Shown here: positions 5 to 25,891 of the stretch, piece after piece
Numbering within the stretch: position 1 is the first letter of the stretch
Layout: every line of letters starts with the position of its first letter
Source: Nostoc sp. PCC 7120 = FACHB-418
GTDB taxonomy: Bacteria > Cyanobacteriota > Cyanobacteriia > Cyanobacteriales > Nostocaceae
Assembly (NCBI RefSeq): GCF_000009705.1
Contig: NC_003240.1
Span: forward strand, 150,001 to 182,000
Reading direction: 5' to 3'
Length of the DNA stretch: 32,000 nt
The notes under the pieces: generated by a model
Told to the model about the DNA's origin: nothing
The model's input: the letters and a program-made list of their open reading frames with translations, nothing else
Databases searched by the model: none
Made by a program: the position numbers and the translations under genes

Positions 5-3000
5 ATGTACCGTGAAATGATTGCCGAAGCAGCATTTCAAAATCAAATTGCAGTTGACCTTTTCAAGAGTGCCAAAAAACCTGAAATTGAAATTATTCGC
101 AACAACAGTCGGATTCTTCACCGTGAAGTCAACTATATTAAGGATAAGAAGAAAGATGTCTATATTGACAATACAATTCAACCGACAGGATATTCTCCTG
201 TTGAATTACTAATTGCTCAAACCAATCAGTATTTTGAAAAAGCTCGCCTCGAATCGCGTGAAATCGTTCAATTTCAAGCTTTATTTGAAGAGGTTGAATT
301 TTCTAACGAACAGCGATTAAAAGCTACCCTCATCAAAAAAGAATTCGACAAATCATTCAACCGAGCAAGTGAGCTATCTAAACAAAAAGAAACTGAAAAA
401 GGGCCATCTGTAAAAATTACCCTTGCTAATGGTAATCAAGTAAGTATAACTAATCTTCTACAGTATGATAATGAATTTATCTGGAAAGCTAATACAATTA
501 CGATAAAACTATCAGAAATATCCGAAGATAAGCGCAATAATAACCGTCCGCATAAATATTTAGTTTATGCTCAAATTAACGATGAAACTGAGAATGGTAA
601 ACCCAAGTTTAGAAAATTAGGGACACTGGCGAGGGAGCAAGAAAATAAACTCGAAGAGATAGTAATTACACTTGGGGAGGAAGTAAAATCTAACAAAATA
701 TCATTCCAACCTGAACTAAGCGAAGGTCAAATTAAACTTCTTTACCAAAAAGCTTACCAGATAGCAGAGGAATTTTATAATTCGCTCCCAGAAGACCAAA
801 AGCTAACAATGGCAGCTGCCACCTGGACGGTATCCACTACTCGTGAGAGTAATAATGATAAAAGTAGCGATCGCCAAAATAAAGTTTCTAATTTCGCCTT
901 TGCTGCCTTTCCTCAAGAGATTATCAGTCAGTTAGATACACTCAAGTTTACCGAGTTTAGTATCACTGGGTTTGACCGGAATAGTGAGTTTTTTAATGAA
1001 AATCAACCTCAGAGTATTCGATTTAATCTAGCTGAAGATGGAAAAAGCGTAATTGAAATCCAGAATCAAGAGGGTAATTACGAATCATTCGGAAATATTG
1101 AACAAAGTAACGCCCGGCTACCAATTGGTACTATTGCTATTGGCAGTATTGAAAAAGGTGAAGTATACACCACCTCTGTTACAACCAAAGTACCTGGACT
1201 ACCAGAACTAACTTTCAAAGTAGGCGAAGTTAATAAGTTTGGAAATTCCCAAAGGTTTAATAATGAACCTGTAATGTTAACAATCGAAAAGGTTGACCTG
1301 ATTCGGGAAGACTATACTATCTATCTTCAAAATGGCAATAAACCTGAAAAACTAGGCAATATTGATAAAGAATCAATCAAAGAAGGTATTACCCAAGGCT
1401 GGCTAGCAGAAAAGCCTGGGAATGGGCAACAGTTACATCTTAAAATTCAAACTATCATCACTGGACAAAATGCCTATGCTATAGCAGAGACATCTCAGAG
1501 CAATCTGTTACGAATTAATATTACGAATCCAAAATACAAGAAACAGGAGATTAACAACCAAGCATTTCAAGAAACTTTAGTTCGTGCATTTGATAAAAAG
1601 CACATTTATATTGCTAAAATTGGCGACCAATCACTCGGTATTATTGGTCAGCATAATGAACGTCTTGAAGCTGATTTAAATAAAGGAAATATACAAAAAC
1701 AGTGGCAAAGGAAAGAAACTAGCACTGTACAAAAATTAATTGATGCAGGTATTATTCGCCCAAACCAACAACGAACCACTATCCCTGTACAGATTACCAG
1801 TAATGAAAGTACTTGTAAAATAATAATTGATCCAGAAACAGTACAATATCCCGACAAATGGGTTAAACGCAGTCAGCTTATAAGTAATGAAAAGCCTGTC
1901 AGAGACGAGCAGCAAGAAAAACGCAACCAAATACTCGATAAAATTAACGAACGCCCTACAATCATGTTCCAAGATAAAGAGCAAAAATTAGTAGGGCTTT
2001 TAGGATTAGCAGTTGATGAAAATATAGCCGAAAAAACCAAAAAGTATCTCGAAAAAGTAGGAGTATCATACGAACAGCTTCCTAGATCACAAGCTCGGTT
2101 AGAAGCCAAAAAAGGAATGACTGTATTCGTACTTGATGAAAGTACCATCAGTGACGAATTAAGACAAACCTTTATTAACCGTGCTGGTGGTCATATCAAA
2201 AGTGCAGATACACCCTCACAAACCACTCCAATCATTCCCCAACAAACTGTATATTTTTATAATCCAAATCAACAATATACTTCCCCCAATGCATCGCTCT
2301 TAGAAACTAAAGAAGCTTTTGGATTAGTAGTTCCCGCACAAAACGCGGTCGCTGTAGCCACTTGGTTAGAATCGAAATCTACTGAAAACGACTATTTTAT
2401 TGAGAGTAACACAGCTACATTTATTTTCAATAAAAATGATATTAGTGAGGAAATTAATGAAGAATTAAATACTTTGCTTGGAGATGCTATTAATATCGCT
2501 GAAGTTGAGGGTTTTGACCGCTACGAACAGCTTAGTGCAGAGTTAAATGAAAAAGTCGCAACTGAAGGTAGTCTTTTAAAATTCAACCAAATTCCAGAAA
2601 ATAGTGAGTACCAAAAAGCTCTAAAAGCACTTCCTAACCGTCCAAGAGAACTCAATCAAGAAGATTCTCCAGTACCAATTATTCCTGCTAAAGCTTTACC
2701 AGAAAAGAATATAACTAATATTCAATTAAATACTAACGCCACAGTTGCAGGAATTTCACAAATCTATCAAAACGCGGTTGAGATACAAGTAGTAAAGAAT
2801 ACAAAATCAGAAGCTAAGAATCAACCAATATTACTACCCAACTCGCGTCAAGCCGATCCAACTAAAGCTATTGAAATCTTGGGTAAGGTAAACGAAAAAA
2901 AAGTAGACCAATTGCGATCGCATCTTGAAACCCACCTCAAACCTATACTTGAAAATGACAAATCTAACTATGCACCACTGAGACAAGTCGCCTGGGTCGG

Positions 3001-5665
3001 TGCAAAATGGGATTTGAAGGAGAAAGACTTCAAGCCAGGGATACAGGACGACAGGTTGATGGAACTTGTCAAACAAGTATATCCTGACGCTGATATTGTG
3101 CTGGTAACTTATTCCGAGAACCCCGGTGCTGGCATCAACTACCACCGCGATGACTCCTACGCCGCGACGGAAGCCCGCAGCATTAATATCAGAAATTCTG
3201 ACTGGGGCTATCGTGCTGCTAAGGAACGAATGGCATGGACTAGGGAAGAGAATCAGGACGCACCATACCAAGAGTTTAAACTTGAGTCGGGTACAGTAAC
3301 CCGCTTTAACTGCAAAAACGAACACGCTGCACTGAATACTGAGGCTGGCAGATGGTCTATCAACATCTGGTCAATTAAAAATGATCTGGGCAGAGAAAAC
3401 AGCGTTCGCCAGAAATTTGAAAACTTCCTCACCTCAAACCAACCTCCGCGTGCGGTAGTCCAAAGCAACAACGACCTTACCATCAAAGCTAACGAGTGGA
3501 CACCAGGGGGAGAAATTAAAGTAGAGCGCAGTTATACCAGCCTCAGAGAAGTCACCCAAAACATACCCTCACACCCTTCAAACCAACCAACTGTCGAAGA
3601 AATTATCGCCATTGCCAATTCCACTGCGGCACGCGCTGCTAATCCTCAGATTCCAGACAACCCGACTATATCTGGCAAACCAGTACCAATGGTTTATACG
3701 CTGCATCTGCACGGCGAAGCTGCCACAGTACCAGTTAACACAACCATCGATGCTATGCGCGGACACGGTAGAATACACACTACCAGAGGTGTAGACTACC
3801 AAAAAACTTATGGTATCAATGAGGGAGATATTGCGATCGCCCAAGGTAAAAACGGCGAGCAAGTTGCTTTTCGGGTAGGTAAGCAATACAAAATTACCAC
3901 CCAAATGATTCAAGACCCAAGTTACCAGCAAGCCTGGGCGAGATGGGAGAAGCATTCCACAAAAGAACTTACCCAAACTCAAGCGAGTAAGAGTCAGGTA
4001 TATGGCTTATTCATGGAGCCACTAGGAGATTATGTCAATGGCAAAATTGTTCCGTTCCCAACTAACCAAAAACAACCTGCAACTCCAGTAAATATCAGCC
4101 CCGACTCTAAAGATGGGCTGGGAGTAGCACTCAGCCTTGCCACTGCTCTCGCCAAAGAACAAGGCAAGCTGCAAAACGATTACCAAGTTTCAGTCAAAAA
4201 TAATCCAGAAGCTCCTGCTGGACAGTATGGAATAGAAACCCATGTCCAAAAACCTCAAGGGGTAGCATACGCATCCGCCGAACACGCATTTAATCACCAA
4301 AAGCAGTTGCATCCATCAGTTGATGAATACCAGCTAATGGTAGAAGTGCTTCAGGCTAAACTCGAACAACACCCCCGGCTGACTGAGGCGATCGCCAAAC
4401 GCGGGGGAGTCAATTGGCTAGAGAACTGTACGAGCATAAGTAATGCCCAAGATAAAAAGTGGGAGGGTGAGGGTAAAGAATCCGCATTTATTCAAGCCTT
4501 TAGCGAAGCGTATATGTATGTAGTTGCAAAATCACAACAAACTACAGTACAAACCCAGCACAACAAGTCCCAACAGACTGCTCTGCGGCCCACAAATCCA
4601 CTGTCCCAACTCGAACCTATAAACGCCGCCGTCGCTGAACACATGAAAAAAGACATTGCGATGGCCCAAATAGCTACCCAGTTTATCGGTAAATCAGCTG
4701 CACCCCTCGGTACACCTTCAAGCACACGAAATTACGAGCAAGCATGGGGAGAGCGCGCCAACACAGGAAATTACTCAAAAGAAGACATCATTATGGTGTC
4801 CGGATCTGGCCCGTGGCGCGGAGTAACAAGCGAGGAAATTGCCCAAACATTTGAAAATCACTATAAACCCTTACTTAATAAGGCAATAGCAGCGAAAAGC
4901 TCTTTTATAGTTGGAAACGCACAAGGAACTGACCAATTAGTTCACAATTATCTTCAAGAAAAAGGGTACAGAGTAGAACAAACTTCCCAAGGATACGCAG
5001 TATTTAATCCTGTAGAAAACACCAAAGTTAGTAGCGATATTATTTCTACTAATACACAAGTATCAGATAACTCATTAATTTCTAAAAACAAGAGCATTTT
5101 TTCATCACAACAAAGCCAAGAACCAAATATTGACCAAGCACTCGCATCATCTGCTCAACCCAATATGCAGCACGTTGGAGCAATGGATAGCATTATCGAG
5201 CGGATGAAAGCTAATACAGTGCAAAATCTCCAAGACTGGTATATGGCAGCTGAAAAACTCGGTAAATCAGACACATATCTCAATAGAATTCAAGAGATAA
5301 CTAATTTATACATTCAAGAAAATATTAGTCTTGAGAATGCTTTTAAGGCAATGGAACAAGACATTAAAGAATTAGAAAAAGTTAATGAGATGACCAGTTT
5401 TGCTCAACGTGTAGTTAAGACAATTGGACAAGAGGATATTAATGGCATTATGTCAGTCCAAACAGAAAAATATCAGATTGCTACTCAAACTCAAACCCAA
5501 ACTTATTTAGTTAAAGATAAAAAGGATAATATCTTGTTATATGTCAAACAAGGAAAAACTCAAGTAAGTAACATTAGTGATGAAACATTACAAGATTTTC
5601 AATTTATGAGCGATCGCATCAATAATGCACTCAAAGATGTCAAAAAAGATTTAGTAGAAAGGTAA
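5..5665 (+). CDS. Giant (at least 1886 aa) multidomain 'polyvalent' protein of a mobile element. The true 5' end probably lies upstream of the window.
   Basis: Uninterrupted 5.66 kb ORF. The frame is already open at nt 2-4, before the first ATG. It contains several recognisable enzymatic motif sets (listed as sub-features) separated by Q/N/S/T-rich linkers. All antisense ORFs inside it are short shadow ORFs. Confidence 0.85.
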   Translation: MYREMIAEAAFQNQIAVDLFKSAKKPEIEIIRNNSRILHREVNYIKDKKKDVYIDNTIQPTGYSPVELLIAQTNQYFEKARLESREIVQFQALFEEVEFSNEQRLKATLIKKEFDKSFNRASELSKQKETEKGPSVKITLANGNQVSITNLLQYDNEFIWKANTITIKLSEISEDKRNNNRPHKYLVYAQINDETENGKPKFRKLGTLAREQENKLEEIVITLGEEVKSNKISFQPELSEGQIKLLYQKAYQIAEEFYNSLPEDQKLTMAAATWTVSTTRESNNDKSSDRQNKVSNFAFAAFPQEIISQLDTLKFTEFSITGFDRNSEFFNENQPQSIRFNLAEDGKSVIEIQNQEGNYESFGNIEQSNARLPIGTIAIGSIEKGEVYTTSVTTKVPGLPELTFKVGEVNKFGNSQRFNNEPVMLTIEKVDLIREDYTIYLQNGNKPEKLGNIDKESIKEGITQGWLAEKPGNGQQLHLKIQTIITGQNAYAIAETSQSNLLRINITNPKYKKQEINNQAFQETLVRAFDKKHIYIAKIGDQSLGIIGQHNERLEADLNKGNIQKQWQRKETSTVQKLIDAGIIRPNQQRTTIPVQITSNESTCKIIIDPETVQYPDKWVKRSQLISNEKPVRDEQQEKRNQILDKINERPTIMFQDKEQKLVGLLGLAVDENIAEKTKKYLEKVGVSYEQLPRSQARLEAKKGMTVFVLDESTISDELRQTFINRAGGHIKSADTPSQTTPIIPQQTVYFYNPNQQYTSPNASLLETKEAFGLVVPAQNAVAVATWLESKSTENDYFIESNTATFIFNKNDISEEINEELNTLLGDAINIAEVEGFDRYEQLSAELNEKVATEGSLLKFNQIPENSEYQKALKALPNRPRELNQEDSPVPIIPAKALPEKNITNIQLNTNATVAGISQIYQNAVEIQVVKNTKSEAKNQPILLPNSRQADPTKAIEILGKVNEKKVDQLRSHLETHLKPILENDKSNYAPLRQVAWVGAKWDLKEKDFKPGIQDDRLMELVKQVYPDADIVLVTYSENPGAGINYHRDDSYAATEARSINIRNSDWGYRAAKERMAWTREENQDAPYQEFKLESGTVTRFNCKNEHAALNTEAGRWSINIWSIKNDLGRENSVRQKFENFLTSNQPPRAVVQSNNDLTIKANEWTPGGEIKVERSYTSLREVTQNIPSHPSNQPTVEEIIAIANSTAARAANPQIPDNPTISGKPVPMVYTLHLHGEAATVPVNTTIDAMRGHGRIHTTRGVDYQKTYGINEGDIAIAQGKNGEQVAFRVGKQYKITTQMIQDPSYQQAWARWEKHSTKELTQTQASKSQVYGLFMEPLGDYVNGKIVPFPTNQKQPATPVNISPDSKDGLGVALSLATALAKEQGKLQNDYQVSVKNNPEAPAGQYGIETHVQKPQGVAYASAEHAFNHQKQLHPSVDEYQLMVEVLQAKLEQHPRLTEAIAKRGGVNWLENCTSISNAQDKKWEGEGKESAFIQAFSEAYMYVVAKSQQTTVQTQHNKSQQTALRPTNPLSQLEPINAAVAEHMKKDIAMAQIATQFIGKSAAPLGTPSSTRNYEQAWGERANTGNYSKEDIIMVSGSGPWRGVTSEEIAQTFENHYKPLLNKAIAAKSSFIVGNAQGTDQLVHNYLQEKGYRVEQTSQGYAVFNPVENTKVSSDIISTNTQVSDNSLISKNKSIFSSQQSQEPNIDQALASSAQPNMQHVGAMDSIIERMKANTVQNLQDWYMAAEKLGKSDTYLNRIQEITNLYIQENISLENAFKAMEQDIKELEKVNEMTSFAQRVVKTIGQEDINGIMSVQTEKYQIATQTQTQTYLVKDKKDNILLYVKQGKTQVSNISDETLQDFQFMSDRINNALKDVKKDLVER
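2950..3390 (+). other. AlkB-like 2OG-Fe(II) dioxygenase domain within the giant ORF
   Basis: The facial triad and 2OG-binding motif have typical spacing: INYHRDD (H1047/D1049, nt 3143-3151), NEHAA (H1107, nt 3323) and RWSINIW (R1116, nt 3350). This resembles the AlkB HxD...H...RxxxxxR pattern. Confidence 0.65.
4100..4520 (+). other. NADAR/YbiA-like domain within the giant ORF
   Basis: YASAEHAFNHQK (E1426 at nt 4280), followed by MVEVLQAKLEQHPRLTEAIAKRGGVNWLEN and DKKWEGEG. This resembles the NADAR signature (Y.S.EH...Q..K / KF.Q.P.L...L..TG...L.E / D..WG.G). Recognised by eye only. Confidence 0.5.
4785..4990 (+). other. Possible Rossmann-like SLOG/DprA/YpsA-type module within the giant ORF
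   Basis: IIMVSGSGPWRG ... FIVGNAQGTDQLVHNYL resembles the glycine-rich loop plus GxAxGxD motif of SLOG-superfamily domains. The assignment is weak. Confidence 0.3.
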
Positions 5666-5672: not shown

Positions 5673-6443
5673 ATGAAAGAACTAGTTGAGTTTCCAGTAG
5701 AAGGTTTAACTCCAGCAATGCAAGCTTGTCTCCTCAGAGAATTAATCGCACAGCTTAATATACCTGATGAGAAATTTGAAGAATATGCAAAAAATCCTCC
5801 AACTGCTGAGGAACGACAAGAGGCTGTGTTAAAGTTAAATTCAGAAATGAATAGAATCAGTGAAATAGCACAAGAAGAAGTAAAGTTAAGTTCCACAGAA
5901 ATTGAACCTATCAATTTTGTTAATCCAGTTAGTCCAGAGTCATCTTTACAACCCGAAGTAAGCCAGTTTAAAGACAATACAATTGAGCCAGATGTTCTAA
6001 AAAATTTTACAGATAAAAATGACGACAATAATGGCAACCTAGTAGAAGAATGTCAACACGATAAAGTGCAATCTATTATCGCTAATTTACAAATTCAACA
6101 ATTTGTTATTCCTGTAATCTTAGACCGCTTAAATATATTTGGAAAACCAGACAAAGAGACAGAAAGTATCATTTATCAAAGTGAGGCATATACTGCAAGT
6201 CTAAAATTAGAAGAAGATTCACAAACTCTTAGCCTTGATAGAAATTCGCCTGATTCAGAAGCAAGCCAAGAAGCACTCCTAGCATCTCGTAATCAGAGCT
6301 CAGAGAATTACTCTATCATCATCAATAACCTTACCCATAATGAATTTGAACGTTTTAAGGCTCTGTTCGATGAGCAACAAGCACGCTGCGAACAGAACCA
6401 ACAAGAATTCAAAAGCCAGGATGCTGTTAAAGAGATAGATTAA
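5673..6443 (+). CDS. Strongly acidic hypothetical protein, probably co-transcribed with the giant gene
   Basis: 256-aa ORF starting 8 nt after the giant ORF stop. Composition is D/E/Q/S-rich, and the antisense ORF 5651-6037 looks like a shadow. Confidence 0.7.
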   Translation: MKELVEFPVEGLTPAMQACLLRELIAQLNIPDEKFEEYAKNPPTAEERQEAVLKLNSEMNRISEIAQEEVKLSSTEIEPINFVNPVSPESSLQPEVSQFKDNTIEPDVLKNFTDKNDDNNGNLVEECQHDKVQSIIANLQIQQFVIPVILDRLNIFGKPDKETESIIYQSEAYTASLKLEEDSQTLSLDRNSPDSEASQEALLASRNQSSENYSIIINNLTHNEFERFKALFDEQQARCEQNQQEFKSQDAVKEID

Positions 6444-6945: not shown

Positions 6946-7734
6946 ATGAAACCTATTAATGTTGTCATCATTGAAAATGAGAACATATCTAGGGTTGGCG
7001 CGGCAGCAATATTATCTGAAACTGGTAAAATCCAGGTATGTGGCCTTGCTAAAACCGGAAAGGAAGGAATAGAAACTGTTGACCAACAAAAGCCAGATAT
7101 CGTGGTGATAAATATTGATTTACCTGATATCAATGGCACTGATGTCATAAGTTTAATTAAATGCAAACACACGTCAATTAAAATAGTGGTTATGACTGCA
7201 AATAGCAGCAGAGATACCATTAACGCAGCAATTAGTAATGGCGCAGACTGCTACTACTGTAAAAATAATGCCAGAGAAGAAGTAGGAGAAAGATTCATTG
7301 AAGCAGTAATGGCTGCATACAATAATGAATCATGGATTGACCCAACTATTAATCGCATTTTGATTGATAATCTTAGGTCAAATGACACAGCCGATAGAGA
7401 TTCACTAGATTTGTTAAGTGATTTCTCTAATAAAGAAATTACAGTTCTCAAATTAGCGGCTGGTGGCATGAAAAATAATGAAATTGCTAATGTCATGTAT
7501 GTTTCCGAAGGTACAGTCAGGTCATATTTACATAATTCATTTATCAAGTTAGGAGTCAAAGATAGATTAAACGCTATCCGGGAAGCTATCCGTCTGGGAA
7601 TCCTCAGCTTTGCAGACATGAAAATCGAAGAAGAAGTTACTCAAGAAAGCCATACAAGAGTCAAAACCAACCAAAATAGTCAAAAGGATACAGCTAAAAC
7701 GAGTAATAAGGGATACAAAGGCTGGGTTGCCTAG
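6946..7734 (+). CDS. Response regulator transcription factor, NarL/FixJ (LuxR-type HTH) family
   Basis: Receiver motifs are present: PDIVVINIDLPDINGTD (phospho-acceptor Asp), VVMTANSS, GADCYYCK. The C-terminal LuxR HTH reads ITVLKLAAGGMKNNEIANVMYVSEGTVRSYLHNSFIKLGVKDRLNAI. Confidence 0.9.
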   Translation: MKPINVVIIENENISRVGAAAILSETGKIQVCGLAKTGKEGIETVDQQKPDIVVINIDLPDINGTDVISLIKCKHTSIKIVVMTANSSRDTINAAISNGADCYYCKNNAREEVGERFIEAVMAAYNNESWIDPTINRILIDNLRSNDTADRDSLDLLSDFSNKEITVLKLAAGGMKNNEIANVMYVSEGTVRSYLHNSFIKLGVKDRLNAIREAIRLGILSFADMKIEEEVTQESHTRVKTNQNSQKDTAKTSNKGYKGWVA

Positions 7735-7738: not shown

Positions 7739-8359
7739 TTAATCAACTGCAATTATGCAGCCACCTGAATACTTCTTCTGCTGACGGCAAGTTTTAATGA
7801 TGGCAGCGTTTCTAACATAAATACTACGTGCTACCTTACCTTCATTAGATTTGGCCCAATCCAGAAGCTTTTTATCTTCGGGTTGTAAAATAGCATTTCC
7901 AGAAGCCGCCTGCTGAAAAGTTACACTTCCAGCAATAGTTTTGTATGTAAAAACACCAATTGTAGCTCCCAAAGCCAGTACAAAACCCAACACTCCCGCT
8001 ACTTGTGCCAATCGCCAATTACTTACACCCAAGAGAGGCAATGCCCCACCAGCTTGCTTAGTCATCTTAATTAAATCCTTAGCGGCTTGGGCGATCGCAT
8101 TTTTTTGTTGCTGTATTGCCACCTTAGAAGCACTATTTAACTTATCGTCCACCATGTCAGCCCAACCCACCACAAGCGAGTCAAGCCTACCAGGTAGTTG
8201 CTGCAACGCAAATTGGGTTGTACCTAGTTCCGCGTATAGGTTAAACAAGGGATCGTCAGGTCGAACACCCAATTTAAGTATCCAATCAGTGACCTCTGCT
8301 TTCTTTTCTTCAGAATATTCTGCAATAACTTTTTCAACAACTTTTGCAATATTGGTCAT
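7739..8359 (-). CDS. Hypothetical protein with one central or C-terminal hydrophobic segment; last gene of the TraL-like operon
   Basis: 206-aa ORF, co-directional with and 55 nt downstream of the ORF 8415-9230. It carries the hydrophobic stretch LAQVAGVLGFVLALGATIGVFTY. Confidence 0.65.
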   Translation of the reverse strand: MTNIAKVVEKVIAEYSEEKKAEVTDWILKLGVRPDDPLFNLYAELGTTQFALQQLPGRLDSLVVGWADMVDDKLNSASKVAIQQQKNAIAQAAKDLIKMTKQAGGALPLLGVSNWRLAQVAGVLGFVLALGATIGVFTYKTIAGSVTFQQAASGNAILQPEDKKLLDWAKSNEGKVARSIYVRNAAIIKTCRQQKKYSGGCIIAVD

Positions 8360-9243: not shown

Positions 9244-10152
9244 TTAAGCAGCTATATCTTCAGATGGTAAATTTGCATCTTGGTTTTTAGCTTTTTCTTT
9301 TTCTTCGTTTTCTCTAAGCTCTTTAGACTTTTCCACAACTGCTGGGTAGTAACAGTCATCTGGTTGTATATCAAAACCCAATAAATTAAATGCTGGCTTA
9401 ATTTGCGTTTCAAACTCACCAAGCCAAGATTTAATTCTTGACTTAATTACAATATTTGTTTCTTTATGAGTCTGACCTTCATTAAAGGTTAAAGCATGAC
9501 GGTCAAGAAAGTCATAAGATTTGTAGAATAAATCTGGCATTACAAGTTCTATCAGACCTTCTGCAAGCATATTCTGACGTAGAGAAGAGTCATTATATCG
9601 CTCAAACTTTTCTTCTTCACCATGAAATAGATTTTTGACTACAATATAATCTACTTGGTCTTTACAAAGTTCACGAAGTTTTTCTAAAACATTTATAGAG
9701 TCAAGAACTCTACTAATCACTGAAACCATTGTCACTCGACAATTAATTTCAGTTTTCAGAACTTCAAAAAATGCAAGCTCTTTGACATAACTTTCAAAGA
9801 AACCTCCAGATTGTGCAGGTAAGTCTAATAATGTGATAGGACAATCACTCTCATCTAGATTAATTAATAAATCATCAGCACCACCTCTATGAAAAATATC
9901 AATATAACGTATTATAGGGCGGTAATCTTTTTGAAAATATCTTTCTATCTGAGGATTTCTCAAGTCAGCTTCATAAGCAACACAGGGTAAATTTTTATTA
10001 ATGTAAAGTTGAAATATTGCTCGTGCAAAGGTACTTTTACCCACGCCACCTTTATCACCTGTTATAATTATCAGTCGCTTTTGAGGCTTATCATTAGTAT
10101 TGGAGGAAGTACTGTTTGACATGGCTGGTTGTTCTTTATTTTTTCTGGACAT
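9244..10152 (-). CDS. TraL-like (IncP Tra1-type) / ParA-MinD superfamily P-loop NTPase
   Basis: Deviant Walker A IIITGDKGGVGKST. The rest of the layout (LLDLPAQ; VVKNLFHG; ALTFNEG...IVIKSRIKSW) recalls RP4 TraL (VVWLNPYWG; LTFDQAL...IMTRQRLK). Confidence 0.75.
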   Translation of the reverse strand: MSRKNKEQPAMSNSTSSNTNDKPQKRLIIITGDKGGVGKSTFARAIFQLYINKNLPCVAYEADLRNPQIERYFQKDYRPIIRYIDIFHRGGADDLLINLDESDCPITLLDLPAQSGGFFESYVKELAFFEVLKTEINCRVTMVSVISRVLDSINVLEKLRELCKDQVDYIVVKNLFHGEEEKFERYNDSSLRQNMLAEGLIELVMPDLFYKSYDFLDRHALTFNEGQTHKETNIVIKSRIKSWLGEFETQIKPAFNLLGFDIQPDDCYYPAVVEKSKELRENEEKEKAKNQDANLPSEDIAA

Positions 10153-10460: not shown

Positions 10461-11420
10461 ATGAGTGAAGTACGAGCTGATTATGATGGTGCTTGGAAGG
10501 AAGGTGTAGAACAATATTTTGAAGCGTTTCTTGCATTTTTCTTTCCAGAGATTCAAGCAGAAATTGATTGGGAACGAGGCTATGATTTTCTCGATCAAGA
10601 ATTGCAACAATTGATAAGAGAATCTGAAATTGGTAAACAATTTGTCGATAAACTAATCAAAGTTTGGCTAAAAGATGGAAAGGAAACTTGGTTGCTGATT
10701 CACCTGGAAATCCAAAGTCAAGTAGATACGAACTTCCCTAAACGGATGTTTTCTTACCACTACAGAATCTTTGACCGTTATAACCAAGAAGTTGTTAGCT
10801 TGGCAATTCTGGGGGATAATCAAGCAAACTGGCGACCGCAAGAATATAGTTATGGTCGTTGGGGATGTCACTTGAGTCTTCAGTTTCCCATTGTAAAACT
10901 ACTGGACTATGAATCTCGTTGGTCAGAATTAGAACAAAGTGATAGTCCTTTTGCTGTACTGGTGATGGCGCACCTGCGGACACAAGCGACAACTCAAGAT
11001 TTAGCAGGCCGATTGCAGTGGAAGTTGAGCTTAATTAAACGAATGTATGAGTTAGGCTATAGTAGAGACAAAATCCAGCAAATCTTCCGGTTGCTAGATA
11101 GATTAATGACTCTACCGCCAGAGTTAGACTTAAATTTCAAAGCAGAATTAGAGCGTTTTGAGGCTGAACAAGAAATGACATACATGACAAGTATAGAACG
11201 CATAGGTATAGCAGAAGCTACCCAGAAATATATTGCTCAAATCCTAACAATTCGATTTAAAGATATTCCTACTGAATTAGTAGAAAAATTAAATAAATTA
11301 TATGACATTGAGTTATTGAATCAATTGTTAGAAAAAGCAGTAACTACAGGTTCAATATCTGAGTTTGAGCAACAATTAAGTCAGGAAGATACAAACACAG
11401 ATAATAAAACCAGCAGATAA
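10461..11420 (+). CDS. Rpn/YhgA-like PD-(D/E)XK recombination-promoting nuclease / putative transposase with a DUF4351-like C-terminal domain
   Basis: The N-terminus (DYDGAWKEGVEQYFEAFLAFFFPEI...DWERGYDFLDQELQQL) and WLLIHLEIQSQ (the ExQ variant of ExK) are typical of the abundant cyanobacterial Rpn-type family. The C-terminal MTYMTSIERIG... matches the DUF4351-type tail. Confidence 0.85.
   Translation: MSEVRADYDGAWKEGVEQYFEAFLAFFFPEIQAEIDWERGYDFLDQELQQLIRESEIGKQFVDKLIKVWLKDGKETWLLIHLEIQSQVDTNFPKRMFSYHYRIFDRYNQEVVSLAILGDNQANWRPQEYSYGRWGCHLSLQFPIVKLLDYESRWSELEQSDSPFAVLVMAHLRTQATTQDLAGRLQWKLSLIKRMYELGYSRDKIQQIFRLLDRLMTLPPELDLNFKAELERFEAEQEMTYMTSIERIGIAEATQKYIAQILTIRFKDIPTELVEKLNKLYDIELLNQLLEKAVTTGSISEFEQQLSQEDTNTDNKTSR
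11087..11206 (+). repeat. Direct repeat copy A (inside the Rpn-like gene, spanning its internal ATG at 11175)
   Basis: Hand alignment with 11464-11583 gives 113 of 120 identical positions. Confidence 0.9.
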
Positions 11421-12251: not shown

Positions 12252-14447
12252 TCATCTTTCCCAAAATTTTTCGCTCTCCAACTCCAAGGAAAATGGTAAA
12301 CATCCAGGATTGGCAGCCGCCCACTCGTTAGCTTCTGCAATTAAAGTTTCGTTACCCGAATCGAGGTAGAATTGCATTTTGGCACGTTGCTCTAAGCGAT
12401 CGCGTTCCTGAGTGCTGAGAATATGTCTCGTGATTACGCAGTATTGGCGCACCTTAGTCCTAGCTTGGGTTAAAGCCATTAACCGTAGTTTTGTCGCTCG
12501 CTTGAGTTCCTCGATGCGGTAGGAAACATCAGCAATCTCTTCACCAACAGATGCACTCTGCCGCCCATTGTTGGCAATTTCCTGTGGTGGTTCTGGTGCA
12601 ACCGCAGCAGGTATCGAAACTACACCCTGCCCATTATCTTCTGTGTTAGATAAGTTTTGATTATCAACTCTTGACGACGTGCCGAGGCTAGAAGGGTATA
12701 TAAAATCCTGATGAAAACTGAATTCATTTGGGTGTAAAATGTCTGTATGAACTGAATTCTCTAATTGATTGCTGGTTTTATTTAAATTAATTTCAGCAGT
12801 ATTAGAAGAATTTATGAATTCAAGATTTTCCACAGGCTGGACGACAGCTGAGTCTTGCTGAGAAACATCGGGTTGTCCAACTACCCCTGCTGACTCCAGC
12901 CCTTGGGGGGCTGTAGCAGCAGGAAGTAAACAGAAAACCTTCATATAGGGAAAATGCCCGTAATTATCGATTTTATTAGGGGTTCTAACATTTTGAATTG
13001 AAAATGAGTTTTGAAAACTATTAAGTTGCCCGTTCTCTATTGATTGATAAGGGTTTGAGCTATTTTCTGCCCAAGGGTCTAAAATATAGCGTGTGGGATG
13101 CCACAAATGTAAGTGCTTTTGTAGTGTCTCTTGAGAGATAGTTTTGTTAAAGCGGCGTTTATACTCAGCACGTATAGCTTTTGCCCGTTCAGTAGCACCT
13201 GCTGGTAATCCACTATCCCACTCTATTGCTCTTACTACTATCTGGATGCGTCGTTGGGCTTGTTGACTGCGTTCCCAGTTCTGTTGGTGGCGACGGTCAA
13301 ATGGAATTACGTTATCTTTAGGTTGATCAATGCTACTAACACCTGCTATGGCTTCTGCAAATGTGTTGGTGAATGTACCCAACAGCCGTTCGGGATAACT
13401 AACGTAGGCACTGTACCATTTGTTACGAATCGTGCATTCTACCCAATGCCGTACTCTAGCTTCGATTTCATGTTTGTGTCGGCAATATTGCTTATAGCCA
13501 GGGGCGTTAATTGCGGTGGAGAGGCAAAATTCGACTAATTTATCGCCTCTTAAGTCTAGAAAGACGATTCCGTAGCCTGCAAAGATTTGTAGGAGGGTGT
13601 TTGTTTGTCCTTGTCCTGTCCAACCGATCGCAATTGTTTCTTCCCAGTTGGCACGCCACTGTGCAGCATCAGCAGACTCTTGCTTACGATATCTCTCCTG
13701 TGCAATTTGTTTTTTGGCCTTGTTTGCTACCCGTTTTAATTTGGTTAAATCTTGCCGACTGGCCGCACGATCGCAATAGTCAAGGAAGATAGAAACGGAA
13801 TCGCTAATAGCTTGTAAGTCATCATCAAGTAAAAATGACCCACTACCCGGTTGCATGGGACAACGGATGGCTTTGTAGTTGGTTATTTGTTTGGCACTAT
13901 ATGGTTTAGTATTGGGAAAGATTTCTAGGTGTCCTTGGCGCAAGATAAAGCCTGCATTTCTCAAGGTAATCTCTAGAGCGCAGGCTAAGGCAAAGGTAGG
14001 CAGGTGAGATGCAAAGTTTAAAATCAAGTGATAGCCACCACTAAAGCTGGACTGGAGAATGACAATATCAACTATGCCAATGTCCTCTAGTGCCGCTTTG
14101 ATGCGATTTATAGATTCAATGTTATGGTAGTCGCCAAAGAAGTCTAAATCGATAGTGGCGTAACGGGTTGTGTTGTCAAAGCGCAGACCTACTAATTTTG
14201 ACTTATCTTGGTGCAGCTTCCACAGTTGGGAGGGTTGCAGGTAATAATCGATAGTGCGCCATGCTGGTTTTGCACCTTCTACTAAAGAAGGGGCAACTAT
14301 CGCCCCAAATGGATGCCAAAAACGCTCTACGTAGCGTTTACCCACAGATTCTGAGGGTAAATGGGGTTTGATTTTCTTTTTTGAAAGCTGTGAAAGACTT
14401 AATGGGGGCTTGTTATCAACATCTGCCCCGAAATCTTCTTGGAACAT
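12252..14447 (-). CDS. Plasmid replication protein with an N-terminal archaeo-eukaryotic primase (AEP) primase-polymerase-like domain
   Basis: RYATIDLDFF (DxD) followed about 45 aa later by QSSFSGGYHLILNF, the sGG.H motif of Prim-Pol domains. A long low-complexity S/N/Q linker and a helical C-terminal region follow. Upstream is a structured, repeat-bearing non-coding region. Confidence 0.6.
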   Translation of the reverse strand: MFQEDFGADVDNKPPLSLSQLSKKKIKPHLPSESVGKRYVERFWHPFGAIVAPSLVEGAKPAWRTIDYYLQPSQLWKLHQDKSKLVGLRFDNTTRYATIDLDFFGDYHNIESINRIKAALEDIGIVDIVILQSSFSGGYHLILNFASHLPTFALACALEITLRNAGFILRQGHLEIFPNTKPYSAKQITNYKAIRCPMQPGSGSFLLDDDLQAISDSVSIFLDYCDRAASRQDLTKLKRVANKAKKQIAQERYRKQESADAAQWRANWEETIAIGWTGQGQTNTLLQIFAGYGIVFLDLRGDKLVEFCLSTAINAPGYKQYCRHKHEIEARVRHWVECTIRNKWYSAYVSYPERLLGTFTNTFAEAIAGVSSIDQPKDNVIPFDRRHQQNWERSQQAQRRIQIVVRAIEWDSGLPAGATERAKAIRAEYKRRFNKTISQETLQKHLHLWHPTRYILDPWAENSSNPYQSIENGQLNSFQNSFSIQNVRTPNKIDNYGHFPYMKVFCLLPAATAPQGLESAGVVGQPDVSQQDSAVVQPVENLEFINSSNTAEINLNKTSNQLENSVHTDILHPNEFSFHQDFIYPSSLGTSSRVDNQNLSNTEDNGQGVVSIPAAVAPEPPQEIANNGRQSASVGEEIADVSYRIEELKRATKLRLMALTQARTKVRQYCVITRHILSTQERDRLEQRAKMQFYLDSGNETLIAEANEWAAANPGCLPFSLELESEKFWER
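12539..12548 (+). repeat. Copy of the decamer CTTCACCAAC (inside the 3' part of the rep gene)
   Basis: Exact match to the decamers at 14662-14671 and 14841-14850. Confidence 0.6.
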
Positions 14448-14457
14448 GAGTGACTGT

Positions 14458-14583
14458 CCTGATGGTTTTCGTGCATCAGGTAGCCTCGCTGTTGGTCAAA
14501 ATGTGTTAGCCTAAATTTGAAATTTTTGTTTTATTAAGAAGCGGTTGGTTATCCGCTTGTTGGAGACGACTGGTAATCGTCTC
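14458..14583 (-). promoter_or_regulatory. Hairpin-rich leader of the replication gene (three stem-loops; the proximal one overlaps the likely Shine-Dalgarno sequence)
   Basis: Three stem-loops are visible. (1) CCTGAT(14458-63)/ATCAGG(14475-80), whose minus-strand arm contains AGGA roughly a dozen nt upstream of the ATG. (2) AAGCGG(14539-44)/CCGCTT(14553-58). (3) GAGACGA(14563-69)/TCGTCTC(14577-83). Confidence 0.45.
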
Positions 14584-14661
14584 ATGGTTGAAAGCAAACA
14601 GAGGTTATACTTGTTTAGGCTTAGACATACGTAGGCTTAGGCTAAGATTTAGTCCAACACG

Positions 14662-14671
14662 CTTCACCAAC
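14662..14671 (+). repeat. Decamer CTTCACCAAC, copy in the rep-parB intergenic region
   Basis: Exact decamer. Nearby are the repeats TAGGCTTAG at 14615-14623 and 14631-14639, plus the inverted TTAGCCTAA at 14506-14514. Confidence 0.6.
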
Positions 14672-14820
14672 AACAATGCGGCTACCCAACTTTTTTTTGA
14701 GAGCTATTTAAAGTAAGTTCTAACGAAGTTGTGACTAAATCTAGAAGAGACTTTTGGAATAAGAATACAAAGCTAGTAACACCTAAAAGTGTCACCAAAA
14801 ACTGGCAGAGGTTAGTACAA

Positions 14821-14850
14821 TTGGTGAAGATGAAATTACACTTCACCAAC
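14821..14850. repeat. Palindrome TTGGTGAAG-N11-CTTCACCAA(C), built from the same decamer
   Basis: The 9-bp arms at 14821-14829 and 14841-14849 are perfectly complementary. Candidate protein-binding site (Rep iteron or ParB-type site). Confidence 0.55.
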
Positions 14851-15001
14851 GAATTTAAAAACAAAAAACAGTCAAATATATCCATACGAGTCCAGCACCC
14901 AAAAAATGAACCCGTACTGCAATCAGTATTGAGATGCTAATCTATTAGGTAACATTAAATTGTGGGATAAATTCTCTGCTAGATTAACTGCTCACAGCTA
15001 C

Positions 15002-16186
15002 CTATGCAGCACGAACATTACCCTTTTTTCTATTTGTAGACACTTCCATTGCTTTCATTTGGTTCTTATAATCCTCCCAAGTTTTTTCAAATACGTCAGA
15101 CTCGTACATCCGCAATAAAACCTCCTCTTTATCAGTTAAATTTGGTAGTTTTAACAACTCCGCTAAAGACACTTGAACTGGAAAAACATCCCTAAATTTT
15201 TCCATTAAGTGAAGTATTCTTTCTCTCTGTTCCGCAGATGGTTCGTCTTGCAACTCTGCATAAATCTGTCGCGGACGTAGATTCACAATTTCTAAGTTCA
15301 TGTTTACTAAATTCCTCAATCCAAAGACAACAAATTCATTAGTTATACCTATAACACGCCCCACAATTTCCAACTCTGTCCGCAGTCTTTTCTTAAATTG
15401 ATATACTTGACCAACTTGGAAACGCCGAAACGGATTGCGATCGCCATTCCGCATCCAAGCGATACCATCACTTATACTACCTATCTCATCCGCTTCAATC
15501 AGGTCTATAACCTGGTCACAGATATCTTGATTGCAAACAAACTTGTACGCTGCATCAATACTTCGGTTAAATTCCGCCTCCAGTGCCACAACTGCCTTAA
15601 ATTTTTGAAGTTCTCTTAATTGAGAAATAAAATCAAATACTTTCTTACCCTTGTGATAACTACCAACACTTATCCTTAGATTCTCTGAAACCTCCCGAAT
15701 CACAGGTTTACCTTTTTTTAATTGAGAGTTACTCTCATCTATCGAAGTGTTCAAATTTGAATACTTCGATTCATTCAAACGACGAGCGCTTTCCCTCTGT
15801 CTTTCTTTCGCTTGGGGACGAAGTACGCTCTCCCAGTACTGCCCCTCATGAAATTTCTGGTAATGAGTCTTCCCTCCTTCCCGGTGGAGATTAAAGTCAA
15901 GCACTAGTTTCAAATCTTCTTCAGGCGAGCCAGACTCGACAAATTCCACTTTCACAGCAGAAATTCCCAACTGGCGAGCTATCTGCAATCGGCACTTACC
16001 TGCCAAGACCACATTTACACCAGTACGTGCAGTTACCTTCAAAGATTCCAGAATCCCTTTTTCCGAGATACTTTTTTCCAAAGCTGGACGATTCTCATTT
16101 TCACCATAGATTTCTATCAGCTTCGGATGAACAACTAACTCCGCAGGAGAAATATATACAATTGCCGGATTATGCACCTCAGACAT
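15002..16186 (-). CDS. ParB N-terminal (ParB/sulfiredoxin) domain protein
   Basis: ISPAELVVHPKLIEIYG...LEKSISEKGILESLKV...VVLAGKCRLQIARQLGISAVKVEFV fits the ParB-N box layout (GxxRxxAa..lG). The roughly 280-aa C-terminal part is unassigned. Confidence 0.8.
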   Translation of the reverse strand: MSEVHNPAIVYISPAELVVHPKLIEIYGENENRPALEKSISEKGILESLKVTARTGVNVVLAGKCRLQIARQLGISAVKVEFVESGSPEEDLKLVLDFNLHREGGKTHYQKFHEGQYWESVLRPQAKERQRESARRLNESKYSNLNTSIDESNSQLKKGKPVIREVSENLRISVGSYHKGKKVFDFISQLRELQKFKAVVALEAEFNRSIDAAYKFVCNQDICDQVIDLIEADEIGSISDGIAWMRNGDRNPFRRFQVGQVYQFKKRLRTELEIVGRVIGITNEFVVFGLRNLVNMNLEIVNLRPRQIYAELQDEPSAEQRERILHLMEKFRDVFPVQVSLAELLKLPNLTDKEEVLLRMYESDVFEKTWEDYKNQMKAMEVSTNRKKGNVRAA

Positions 16187-16582
16187 TATTAATACTCCGG
16201 GTCACAAATTGTCTAAAAAGATAAGTTCAATTTTGAAAAGCCCAAGCAGAAAACCAGAATAACTCAAGCAGCAAGACTTACAGCACTTTCATCCACTAGA
16301 GAAAGTGATATTATTAAAAATAATTAATTTTTGTAAAAAGTAAAGGATTAGCTACCAGAAAAACTATTGAAGAAAATTTTCCAGTCAGCAAACTATTATT
16401 CCCAACCCATTGAAAACTAATACGACTGAAGATATATTTAACGCACTGGTATTTGGGAAAAAAACATCTATCCAAAGAAAGATTTGTAAAACTATGTAAA
16501 CTCATGATATGATTGCTCTAGTTAGTTAAATTGACAAAACGATGTCCCGCCCTGTTCTAGTAACAGGTAGGCTTGTTTTTTC

Positions 16583-16613
16583 CTCAAAGCCCTGGTGCAA
16601 ACAGGGCTTTGAG
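16583..16613 (+). terminator. Perfect 12-bp stem hairpin (CTCAAAGCCCTG-GTGCAAA-CAGGGCTTTGAG) followed by CGAGTTTTT
   Basis: The stem was read directly from the sequence. The U-tract is interrupted and no plus-strand gene ends just upstream, so a terminator role is uncertain. Confidence 0.3.
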
Positions 16614-16706
16614 CGAGTTTTTAAGCAAAATGAACGCTACAAAAAAAGTATACCAGTCTTGATTCCATTTGGCAAAATTGTACAGTAAAGAGGGGTAAAT
16701 TTTTAG

Positions 16707-17159
16707 ATGCCTCGTCTTCAAATATTAAATTCTATTGAAAAACAAGCACTAGAACATATAGCGGCAACCAGCAGCGATGAAGTTAGCAAAAGAGCCAAGA
16801 TTCTGCTAGGACTAGACGAAGGCAAAAAATATGTAGCTTTAGCCCAAGAAATCGGTGTAACCGAAAAATCAATAGCAAAGTGGAAGAAAAGATGGACATC
16901 AAGTACCATCTTGTCAGAAACCCAAGAGTCGGCGATCGCAAAAGCTAATGAAGTATTGGGTGTCAACGTAGGCAGACCTAAGAAGTGCAAAAGTACAGAG
17001 GCAAGCAAAATTGTCGAAATCAGCGAATGGAGCAAGAACCGAAAACCTAGTCGCTCAAAGCACCACTACCATATGCAGGTAGCAGAAGAAGCCGCTAGGA
17101 GAGGTTTACCAACACTATCGCCAAGAAGTATAGGACGCATTTTGGAAGCTCAACCTTAA
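16707..17159 (+). CDS. Helix-turn-helix protein resembling the N-terminal DNA-binding part of IS630-type transposases (no DDE domain)
   Basis: RAKILLGLDEGKKYVALAQEIGVTEKSIAKWKKRW and GRPKK...SPRSIGRIL match the two HTH modules of IS630 ORF1-type proteins. The ORF stops at 150 aa. Confidence 0.7.
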   Translation: MPRLQILNSIEKQALEHIAATSSDEVSKRAKILLGLDEGKKYVALAQEIGVTEKSIAKWKKRWTSSTILSETQESAIAKANEVLGVNVGRPKKCKSTEASKIVEISEWSKNRKPSRSKHHYHMQVAEEAARRGLPTLSPRSIGRILEAQP

Positions 17160-17244
17160 TAGAAAAAGTCATCAAGCAAGTACCATCCTAGCCCAAGGGA
17201 GTAGTTTTGCAATCCCAGTTTTTACCGAGGCTTTTCATCAAAAT

Positions 17245-17751
17245 TTAAGCAAGCATTTCCACACACTCGACCACTTGAGCAGAGGTCACTTGTTGCGCGA
17301 TCAGAAAGTCAACGAGTCCATCAAGTTTTTTACGGTTGTAGACGGTAGAATAGCCTTGGATTCGGCGTTCTTTGCAGAACTGTCGCAGCTTCCGCGCACC
17401 TAAATCCAAAAGCTTCTTCCTTTCTTCCTTAACGTCTACTAGCACAAGCTGTCTAGCTTCATCCGCAACCCCAGTTTCAACAACTGGCGGAGCAGTTTCA
17501 ATAATGGAAGATTCTGGTTTAGAAAATTCTTCCCAAACAGAAGCAGCACCAACACCAGTCAAATCCCCATGAGTTTCCAAAACTGGCAACTCTTCAGAAA
17601 TCACCCCAACGCTATTACTAACTTGAAGTGATACTGATTGAGCAGGGACAAATATCACATAGAAGATTGGGAAGACCATCAAAAACAACTCGATTGGAAA
17701 CAAAACATCGTTAACAGATTGCACAAAAGGCGATATTGCAAAAGCAGACAT
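17245..17751 (-). CDS. Membrane-anchored hypothetical protein with a C-terminal HeH/SAP (Rho_N-like) motif
   Basis: N-terminal hydrophobic helix (LFPIELFLMVFPIFYVIFVPA). The C-terminal LDLGARKLRQFCKERRIQGYSTVYNRKKLDGLVDFL resembles the LxxLRxxaxxxgIxGxsxxxKxxLIxxL HeH motif. Confidence 0.55.
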   Translation of the reverse strand: MSAFAISPFVQSVNDVLFPIELFLMVFPIFYVIFVPAQSVSLQVSNSVGVISEELPVLETHGDLTGVGAASVWEEFSKPESSIIETAPPVVETGVADEARQLVLVDVKEERKKLLDLGARKLRQFCKERRIQGYSTVYNRKKLDGLVDFLIAQQVTSAQVVECVEMLA

Positions 17752-18022
17752 AATGTGGTTCCTCCATGAATTACTGATGGGCGGCGTTTAGCGGCTTACC
17801 ACCCAGTAGCGGGGGAAACCCCCGTACTGAGTGAAAGCTTTTACACGTATCCCAGCCAATAGCAGGAGAAAGGAGGATAAATTGCCTTTTTAAGCAATTA
17901 GATGAACTAAGTTTTCCAAAATTTGCAGATGTTGAATTCTAGAGATTATTAATTCAAAATACGGGAATTGCAAAAATGCGATTTTTCCGGCTTGTACTCG
18001 CAGCTTTTAGAAACCTCCTTAT

Positions 18023-19288: not shown

Positions 19289-19559
19289 AATTTATCCCTC
19301 CAAAATGCAGGTCACAAGATTTTTAATTACTCTTGCCCCGGCACAAATTGGGATTTGCTGAGAACTACACTACTAACCTACCCCTTACTCTATTAACAAT
19401 TCCACAACTATTTAATAGATATGTACTCGTTAATTTTCAGTCTCAGTAGTAGTTTCATTCCCAATGGTGATAGCAAGAGTCGAACTTGCTTTGTTGCTGA
19501 AAACAACAATCTAACCGAACTGGAATATCACCAAATAATAATATTTAGAAATAGCATAT

Positions 19560-20039: not shown

Positions 20040-20060
20040 TACTATTATCCTTTAGATAAA

Positions 20061-23396: not shown

Positions 23397-23404
23397 AAAG
23401 TGGC

Positions 23405-25877: not shown

Positions 25878-25891
25878 TAGCTAAATAACTT

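Follow-up and report, generated by a model that had tools for sequence, protein, structure and literature searches.

What is the protein encoded by the largest gene in this stretch of Nostoc sp. PCC 7120 DNA, and what might it do for the plasmids that carry it? The window, by which we mean the whole stretch of 32,000 nucleotides analysed here (contig NC_003240.1, positions 150,001 to 182,000), begins with its largest open reading frame (ORF), at 5..5665 on the plus strand, which comprises 1886 codons plus a stop codon. An earlier note, made from the sequence alone, had described this ORF as a giant polyvalent protein and had pointed to four motif sets within it: a 2-oxoglutarate (2OG)-Fe(II) oxygenase set (nt 3143-3370), a PUA/ASCH-like beta-rich stretch (around nt 3760-3900), a YbiA/NADAR-like set (around nt 4266-4520) and a GxAxGxD Rossmann-like segment (around nt 4785-4990). 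All four sets lie at these positions. The analysis reported here leads us to give slightly better than even chances to the reading that the gene specifies a polyvalent-type giant protein, in which a probable two-barrel core, an exchangeable cassette of enzyme domains and a C-terminal tail would act on transferred DNA.

The gene is real and intact. The three nucleotides that precede the ORF (nt 2-4) are CAA, which is not a stop codon, so the frame is open to the 5' edge of the window and is only cut there. The complete coding sequence (CDS) of 7746 nt, specifying 2581 aa, was found on plasmids of Trichormus variabilis 0441 (L001) and Scytonema NIES-4073 (L002). On L001 it occupies 12920-20665 and corresponds to WP_011316719.1, which is annotated 'hypothetical protein'. 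By comparison with both plasmids the CDS starts 2081 nt upstream of the window, which makes residue 1 of the window protein approximately residue 696 of the full-length protein. Ten complete Nostocales plasmids of 215-300 kb match the first 12 kb of the window with ~95% identity over 95% or more of that length. Among them are plasmid1 of Scytonema NIES-4073, plasmids of Nostoc linckia NIES-25 and Aulosira laxa NIES-50, plasmid C of T. variabilis ATCC 29413, the plasmid of T. variabilis 0441 and those of Tolypothrix PCC 7601/7712. Most of the matching plasmids were typed as conjugative, and the two that were inspected (L001 and L002) were typed as having a MOBP relaxase and an MPF_T mating-pair system.

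The ratio of nonsynonymous to synonymous substitution rates (dN/dS) relative to the L001 orthologue was lower in the folded modules (0.17-0.42) than in the linkers (0.58-0.65), indicating purifying selection. A frame of the same length in L001 and L002 and ten independently sequenced replicons that agree at ~95% identity leave no room for the assembly chimera that the earlier note had thought it necessary to consider, and with the evidence for purifying selection a pseudogene was ruled out as well. Two ORFs on the opposite strand (2834-3325 and 3578-3982) lie inside the conserved coding region and are probably not genes. The parts of the protein that we distinguish are as follows, all on the plus strand, with residues numbered from the start of the window protein.

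5..5665, +, C-terminal 1886 codons plus stop of the 2581-aa protein (full CDS in L001; region present in ten plasmids)
5..2209, +, C-terminal part of the N-terminal core, residues 1-735 (homologue alignments, invariant columns)
2210..2824, +, variable linker, residues 736-940 (dN/dS 0.58; Q/N/S/T fraction 0.33)
2825..3544, +, module M1, predicted AlkB-like 2OG-Fe(II) dioxygenase, residues 941-1135 with a conserved extension to ~1180 (AlphaFold2 model, Foldseek, invariant residues)
3695..4069, +, module M2, predicted beta-rich domain, residues 1231-1355, the shared stretch beginning at ~1190 (AlphaFold2 model, invariant columns)
4070..4534, +, module M3, putative divergent NADAR-superfamily domain, residues 1356-1510, the shared stretch beginning at 1349 (hhalign)
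4685..5014, +, module M4, predicted small Rossmann-like alpha/beta domain, residues 1561 to ~1670, the shared stretch beginning at 1525 (AlphaFold2 model, motif)
5219..5662, +, module M5, conserved C-terminal tail, residues 1739-1886 (BLAST and HMM mapping)

The family to which the protein belongs is defined by the N-terminal core and not by the enzyme cassette. The core extends from full-length residue 1 to ~1430, of which window residues 1-735 are the C-terminal half, and it is present in more than 113 cyanobacterial clusters. When a profile made from a trimmed alignment was used to search 1.84 billion representatives, it retrieved 341 (at the 50% identity level) at E ≤ 1e-3, of which 146 also passed E ≤ 1e-30; the longest has 3686 aa. 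The minimal architecture, seen in P0139, P0144 and P0147, is the core followed by M2 and the tail. In a relative from the Prochloraceae (P0134), an N-terminal PrimPol plus PriCT-2 is fused to the same core. Across the core family there is a large store of domain combinations that lack annotation.

Three motifs are invariant in the core: F-R-S-P, D-x-D-G-D and N-Q-x-x-x-D-x-x-K-S. In full-length numbering, R420, P422, D539, D541 and D543 are invariant or nearly so (R-x-P nearly, D-x-D-G-D fully). The third motif reads NQIAVDLFKS at window nt 41-70 and the other two lie just upstream of the window, where the earlier note had guessed at a relaxase, a primase, a methylase or ArdC; what is found there instead is this large core with its RxP and DxDGD signature. 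The part of the core that lies within the window is under strong constraint (dN/dS 0.17). R-x-P and D-x-D-x-D account for five of the eight residues that are invariant in all two-barrel RNA polymerases (PMC2919709). D145, R173/R187 and K190, which are nearly invariant, are candidates for barrel B residues; an alignment to a known barrel B was not obtained. A Pfam scan of 53 diverse core members gave recurrent matches only to RNA_pol_Rpb1_2 (five members, best E 0.011) and RdRP (two members, best E 0.007). Similarly, the profile of these 53 members had a lone match in the PDB, the gamma subunit of RNA polymerase (the N-terminal half of beta'), at E 1.8, and the alignment was in register over the R-x-P ... 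DFDGD catalytic segment. Scans with the window protein and its segments found no Pfam, NCBIfam or PHROG match to the core, and tblastn of the core against phages found none either. A match of the core profile to FliS was dismissed, as a low-complexity helical stretch had been aligned. Judged by its motifs and sub-threshold matches, the core is quite likely to be polymerase-like and of the two-barrel type. A cyanobacterial YonO-like group whose role is enigmatic is already in the literature (PMC2919709, PMC5467207).

The region that follows the core is modular. A homology search with window residues 960-1690 yielded 42 cyanobacterial clusters, and local alignments of these clusters split the region into the independently inherited modules M1 to M5. 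Module order is permuted in P0018 and P0019, and M3 is present twice in P0002, P0006 and P0025. Some relatives carry alternative domains, either RNase H with cpYpsA, DUF488-N3a, or a superfamily 1 (SF1) helicase of the UvrD/PIF1 type. Pfam-significant domains in 20 giant relatives comprised canonical NADAR (2.9e-46), cpYpsA (4e-60), YAcAr (1.5e-15), DUF4326 (7e-13), SF1 helicase and RNase H; canonical NADARs are borne by P0203 and P0283, and an SF1 helicase by P0245 (3686 aa). Homologues of the cassette were found on 52 plasmids. The idea that other plasmid proteins share the tail was rejected, as none of the remaining ORFs of the window, L001 and L002 contained any of the five modules.

In composition the gene is a sharp mosaic. 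The GC content at third codon positions was 0.33-0.50 in the cassette (nt 2825-5014) compared with 0.22-0.27 in the parts on either side, the core and the tail, a difference that points to acquisition of the cassette by recombination from a different genomic background. The long Q/N/T/S-rich linkers noticed earlier were borne out: the fraction of Q, N, S and T was 0.33-0.46 in the linkers compared with 0.21-0.30 in M1-M4 and the C-terminal tail. The linker at residues 736-940 has nothing in common with most relatives, and segment scans gave no family match for it.

The motifs of M1 are H1047-R-D1049 (nt 3143-3151), H1107 (nt 3323-3325) and R1116-W-S1118 (nt 3350-3358), and the H, D, H, R and S residues are invariant in all 17-18 copies of M1. 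An AlphaFold2 (AF2) model of M1 and M2, made from a 22-sequence alignment, had a mean predicted local distance difference test (pLDDT) score of 81.5. Foldseek comparison of this model with the PDB gave 163 matches at E ≤ 0.001, and the best 50 of the 163 were all members of the AlkB family (E. coli AlkB, ALKBH2/3/5/6/7 and Ofd2), with E values of 5e-7 to 3e-5, target template modelling (TM) scores of 0.5-0.63 and identities of 11-16%. BFVD matches to M1 were AlkB domains of viral origin, found in replicases of plant viruses, in giant viruses and in phages. At the level of sequence, Pfam matches were below threshold (2OG-FeII_Oxy_3, E 0.084-0.097; 2OG-FeII_Oxy, E 0.074-0.16; 14.1 and 12.7 bits for the window segment against cut-offs of 27 and 23), no AlkB-specific model was among them, and single-sequence and profile searches of PDB sequences, for M1 as for M2, M4 and the core, found nothing significant. 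The predicted structure and the invariant set of metal- and 2OG-binding residues support the assignment of M1 as an AlkB-like 2OG-Fe(II) dioxygenase domain, in line with the oxygenase motifs first noticed there.

Stand-alone homologues of M1 (26-30% identity) were seen on small cyanobacterial plasmids, namely NZ_LR882957.1 (Planktothrix, 5.3 kb), NC_019428.1 and CP101713.1. A 'NADAR domain protein' of Pithovirus LCDPAC02 (BFVD A0A481YQG8, 1058 aa) also has an AlkB-like domain that matches M1, so that the pairing of AlkB and NADAR recurs outside the bacteria.

The NADAR-like motifs of M3 are SAEHAFNHQK (nt 4274-4303), WLEN (nt 4415-4426) and QDKKWEG (nt 4448-4468). Residues of importance in NADAR are an E and a K seven apart and a conserved acidic residue downstream (Schuller et al., PMC11543638). 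M3 has E1426 (nt 4280-4282), K1433 (nt 4301-4303), E1473, D1483 and W1486, and 20-28 of 34 copies keep these key residues. M3 lacks about 30 residues in the stretch from the E..K helix to the conserved helix that follows. The top PDB match of the M3 profile was E. coli YbiA (E 0.13), and local hhalign comparison with YbiA of MG1655 alone gave a probability of 89.6% and P 1.9e-6. We then enlarged the comparison, setting an M3 profile of 33 segments against YbiA plus the canonical NADARs of the giant relatives P0203 and P0283 (phmmer E 2e-9 and 4e-8). The probability rose to 96.3%, with P 1.6e-9 over 85 columns covering YbiA residues 40-158, and control modules gave P > 0.08 in the same test. 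The Pfam NADAR model (PF08719) matched M3 at E 0.033 (14.9 bits; cut-off 35.1) and weakly matched 4 of 18 members. In Foldseek, the M3+M4 model had no match at E ≤ 0.001; YbiA (2b3w) ranked third, a weak match (E 0.35, 75 columns, TM 0.25). Profile-profile comparison and the retained catalytic residues thus support M3 as a putative divergent member of the NADAR superfamily, and the earlier suggestion holds at a level that the Pfam threshold does not register. M3-like sequences were also seen on Variovorax megaplasmids (NZ_LR594690.1), the sole non-cyanobacterial ones among the matches listed.

M2 contains AMRGHGRIHTTRG at nt 3752-3790, in the stretch that had been called ASCH-like. It was modelled by AF2 with a pLDDT of 90-95 and has the invariant residues G-R-x-H-T-T-R, G-D, V-G-x-Q-Y, W..EK and P-x-G-D. 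It is the most widespread module among the cassette relatives, with 34 segments, the remaining four modules having 13, 17, 15 and 14; of 141 new family representatives, M2 was present in 15, M3 in 18 and M4 in 20. There was no Pfam ASCH match in 16 M2-containing members (alignment A3) and no match in a PDB profile search, and hhalign against E. coli YqfB, an ASCH protein, gave P 0.12-0.18. The Foldseek lists from the PDB and BFVD were filled by AlkB matches to the co-modelled M1, so the fold of M2 was not read out. On our own reading of the model, the order of secondary structure elements resembles that of YqfB. M2 is a real and widespread domain whose model is confident, but the ASCH/PUA label for it is unproven.

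M4 carries IIMVSGSG (from nt 4787) and FIVGNAQGTDQ (nt 4904-4936); in the family these motifs take the forms IMVSGxG and F-[IV]-V-G-x-A-x-G-T-D and 30-31 of 35 copies conserve them. The pattern predicted by AF2 is beta-alpha-beta-alpha-beta, with a pLDDT of 87-97. The best PHROG match was PHROG 289, a YpsA-like 'GTP-binding domain' (E 0.0044), and the second motif resembles FITGGALGTDQ of SPbeta YoqJ, a YpsA-type SLOG protein (hhalign P 0.02, motif only). Comparison with cpYpsA by hhalign gave P 0.73, and searches with SLOG Pfam models, Foldseek and PDB profiles returned no significant match. A motif that is not accompanied by a significant fold or profile match makes the SLOG-like label a lead and not a result. 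Of the original Rossmann-like proposal, a conserved and predicted small alpha/beta domain stands, and its likeness to SLOG/YpsA is by motif only. A tblastn search of phages with M2-M4 gave only marginal matches to Vibrio phages.

The tail, M5, is found at the C-terminus of 48 proteins whatever lies in the middle of the protein. Its dN/dS was 0.22, and segment scans gave no family match. As it is kept at the C-terminus regardless of the content of the middle, M5 is a candidate for a role in recognition or translocation.

The gene is linked to genes for DNA transfer. Genes for a nikA-like protein and a MOBP relaxase lie 3.6 kb upstream of it, and in three relatives the distance to a Mob_Pre+DUF3991 or TrwC relaxase is 4-8 kb; members of the family are thus near relaxases of three MOB classes (Mob_Pre+DUF3991, TrwC and MOBP/NikA). 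The relaxase-adjacent loci are these:

L006, 2575-4293
L007, 1-3590
L008, 704-5938
L001, 7034-9309

Shorter relatives share a conserved gene of 176 aa, directly upstream and on the other strand, that the plasmid lineage of the window lacks.

Downstream of the giant gene are ordinary plasmid maintenance and regulation genes. The nearest, an ORF of 256 aa at 5673-6443 (+), starts 8 nt past the giant stop codon and is probably co-transcribed with the giant gene; it has a weak match to PIN_8 (E 0.005, below cut-off), and its annotated homologue in T. variabilis 0441 is shorter (L001 20673-21095). The recognizable genes that follow are listed here.

6946-7734, +, LuxR-type response regulator
7739-8359, -, DUF6753 protein
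9244-10152, -, ParA-like ATPase
10461-11420, +, Rpn/YhgA-like putative transposase
20515-22704, -, FtsK/SpoIIIE-family ATPase
25892-26590, -, M23 peptidase in a run of ORFs on the same strand

Three large ORFs, 12252-14447, 15002-16186 and 18023-19288, all on the minus strand (731, 394 and 421 aa), are conserved in related plasmids and have no Pfam match; the GC content of the first (0.44) is above that of its surroundings. The minus-strand run at 20515-30362, in which almost no ORF has a Pfam match, is probably a transfer or mating-pair apparatus. At 31332-31994 (-), cut by the end of the window, is the C-terminal part of an AAA_21/AAA_15 ATPase of the AbiEii/OLD type, possibly a plasmid-borne defence or toxin-antitoxin gene.

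How might these parts work together? AlkB enzymes act on single-stranded DNA (ssDNA) and RNA. DarT ADP-ribosylates ssDNA, and NADAR reverses the resulting ADP-ribosylated guanine (G-ADPr) (PMC11543638); from these two activities, M1 and M3 would remove base adducts. We envisage that the giant protein acts on the single-stranded transfer DNA of the plasmid during conjugative establishment. The core would make RNA on the incoming strand, either primers or early transcripts, a role like that of the TraC1 primase or, for a phage, of the N4 virion RNA polymerase. The AlkB-like module would take alkyl groups off bases by oxidation, and the NADAR module would remove ADP-ribose from bases or process NAD or ADP-ribose derivatives; M4 would be a small SLOG-like nucleotide-binding domain of the cassette. 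Together the cassette might erase base changes made by host defences, that is, alkylation and DarT-type ADP-ribosylation of ssDNA. Among known polyvalent proteins, primases and N4-type RNA polymerase modules travel with the DNA (PMC5512222), and phages use orphan NADARs against DarTG1 (PMC11825919). [quoted passage not shown] Such a core would be a further and unrelated polymerase type among polyvalent effectors, beside the Toprim and PrimPol primases and the T7-like N4 RNA polymerase, and the enigmatic cyanobacterial YonO-like proteins would acquire a function. We put this proposal forward tentatively, as possible but on balance doubtful.

Several observations weigh against the protein being of the polyvalent type and acting on transferred DNA. 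No Pfam, NCBIfam or PHROG match passes its curated threshold for the window protein, the full protein or the segments, so that no part of the giant protein reaches a curated family cut-off. The polymerase assignment of the core draws on motifs and sub-threshold matches; hhalign comparison of the core with YonO, or with a 16-sequence YonO-family profile, was not significant (P 0.011-0.27), shuffled controls scored equally, and truncated regions and 30 column shuffles had the same outcome. AlkB proteins have the signature R-x-N-x-T-x-R. M1 does not have the second Arg of this motif and reads R-W-S-I-N-I-W, with the W invariant; with this Arg replaced and the Pfam thresholds missed, we filed M1 as an AlkB-like 2OG-Fe(II) member and not as an AlkB orthologue. 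Catalytic residues have been lost in some M3 copies of relatives. The gene lies downstream of the relaxase in the plasmid of the window. By analogy with RP4 and R64, that side of the relaxase is not the leading region. The L007 and L008 members lie on the other side of their relaxases, which leaves the family without a consistent position relative to an oriT that is itself unmapped. The giant protein would have to be a substrate of the T4SS, and AlkB and NADAR could equally well serve repair within the donor. As to the polyvalent label itself, the multi-domain make-up, the shuffling and the conjugative element agree with the earlier note, but the hallmark domains are not there: none of ArdC-N, zincin metallopeptidase, SNF2, DNA methylase, ADP-ribosyltransferase, Toprim/PrimPol or T7-like N4 RNA polymerase was found in the 2581-aa protein. 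Lastly, Iyer et al. (2017) report a paucity of polyvalent proteins in cyanobacteria.

Some of these observations would suit a protein that stays at home. As a plasmid-resident factor for replication, repair or transcription, it would work in the carrier cell only and have no part in transfer or anti-defence; its core would prime or transcribe plasmid DNA as YonO does the SPbeta late genes, and AlkB and NADAR would provide housekeeping repair. YonO is a bona fide phage transcriptase (PMC5467207), the giant gene is near partition and regulatory genes (ParA-like, DUF6753 and a LuxR-type regulator), in the plasmid of the window it is downstream of the relaxase and not in an obvious leading region, and family members are also found on Mb-size replicons. 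Rapid shuffling, duplication and replacement of effector modules, however, are rare in housekeeping functions, the linkage to relaxases is conserved across three MOB classes, and a repertoire of NADAR, SLOG, DUF4326 and Macro-like domains is tied to conflict systems (PMC9503650). We therefore consider a purely resident role unlikely.

That repertoire could also point to a protein of defence or exclusion, borne by the plasmid and aimed at phages or rival plasmids, in which SLOG and NADAR sense or process nucleotide signals and the core is the effector, since both sides of nucleotide-centred conflict systems have SLOG, NADAR and DUF4326 domains (PMC9503650) and the AbiEii/OLD-like AAA ATPase is also in the window (nt 31332-31994). 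The modules, however, are repair or reversal enzymes by their predicted activities (dealkylation, de-ADP-ribosylation) and not toxins, the gene is linked to relaxases and not to defence islands, and no PADLOC-type or known defence architecture was recognised, in scans that did not include the PADLOC library; a defence role seems quite improbable to us. That the motifs match by chance, or that remnants of unrelated genes have fused into a decayed, functionless chimera, is scarcely credible. The unmet curated thresholds and the strong compositional mosaic inside the gene might suggest it, but it is already refuted by the data on conservation and selection: a 7746-nt frame that is intact in L001 and L002 and matched in the ten independently sequenced plasmids, low dN/dS in the modules, invariant catalytic residues, confident AF2 models and 341 representatives. 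We return, then, to a giant protein of polyvalent type that would act on transferred DNA.

Little is understood of conjugation in cyanobacteria, whose plasmids are rich in unannotated giant genes. The family described here has 341 representatives and proteins of up to ~3700 aa, and its core is covered by no curated model. If the polyvalent reading is true, it would carry the polyvalent principle into a phylum for which a scarcity of such proteins had been reported, with a different polymerase-like core and enzyme repertoire. Should the core be an active two-barrel polymerase, the 'enigmatic' bacterial YonO/RdRP-like proteins would gain a role. Action of AlkB and NADAR on the transferred strand would make them the plasmid equivalent of phage anti-DarTG enzymes, and the family could then be a source of new anti-defence or DNA-repair activities. 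There may also be some relevance to the engineering of gene transfer into filamentous cyanobacteria.

Each part of the protein can be compared with a known system. M1 resembles the AlkB family (E. coli AlkB, ALKBH2/3/5 and the domains of plant-virus replicases) in its predicted double-stranded beta-helix fold and in its H-x-D...H iron triad and 2OG-binding Arg, and, like the AlkB domains of flexivirus replicases, it forms part of a large multi-domain protein borne by a mobile replicon. M3 resembles NADAR (YbiA and the DarT1-associated antitoxin) in that it retains the E, the K seven residues on, the downstream E and the D..W.G motif, and relatives in the giant family have canonical NADARs at equivalent positions; unlike the antitoxin, the giant gene has no adjacent DarT. 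The core shares with the YonO/RdRP-like two-barrel RNA polymerases (Iyer 2003; Ruprich-Robert & Thuriaux 2010; Forrest 2017) the motifs R-x-P, D-x-D-G-D and N..D..K[ST] in the same order, the counterparts in YonO being RSP at 492, DNDGD at 535 and IDFAKT at 624. Motif spacing is longer in the core (73-119 residues compared with 43, and 170 compared with 89), the giant protein is 2-4 times larger and has C-terminal enzyme cassettes, homology is not statistically established, and the giant gene is plasmid-borne and relaxase-linked and is not among prophage late genes.

As for the polyvalent proteins themselves (Iyer, Burroughs, Anand, de Souza and Aravind 2017), of which RP4 TraC1, pSa ArdC and the N4 virion RNA polymerase are examples, the giant protein differs in its core, which is probably of the two-barrel type, and in the effectors of its family, which are AlkB, NADAR, SLOG-like, RNase H, DUF4326 and SF1 helicase domains; AlkB and NADAR are not mentioned in the 2017 survey (Iyer et al.). 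The polyvalent label is thus partly supported: it fits by architecture and not by the original set of domains, and delivery to the recipient would complete the likeness. What the giant protein shares with polyvalent proteins is a very large single chain carried on a conjugative element, many unrelated catalytic domains that are joined by low-complexity linkers and shuffled combinatorially among relatives, the pairing of a putative polymerase module with effector enzymes, and a gene that is tied to DNA-transfer genes.

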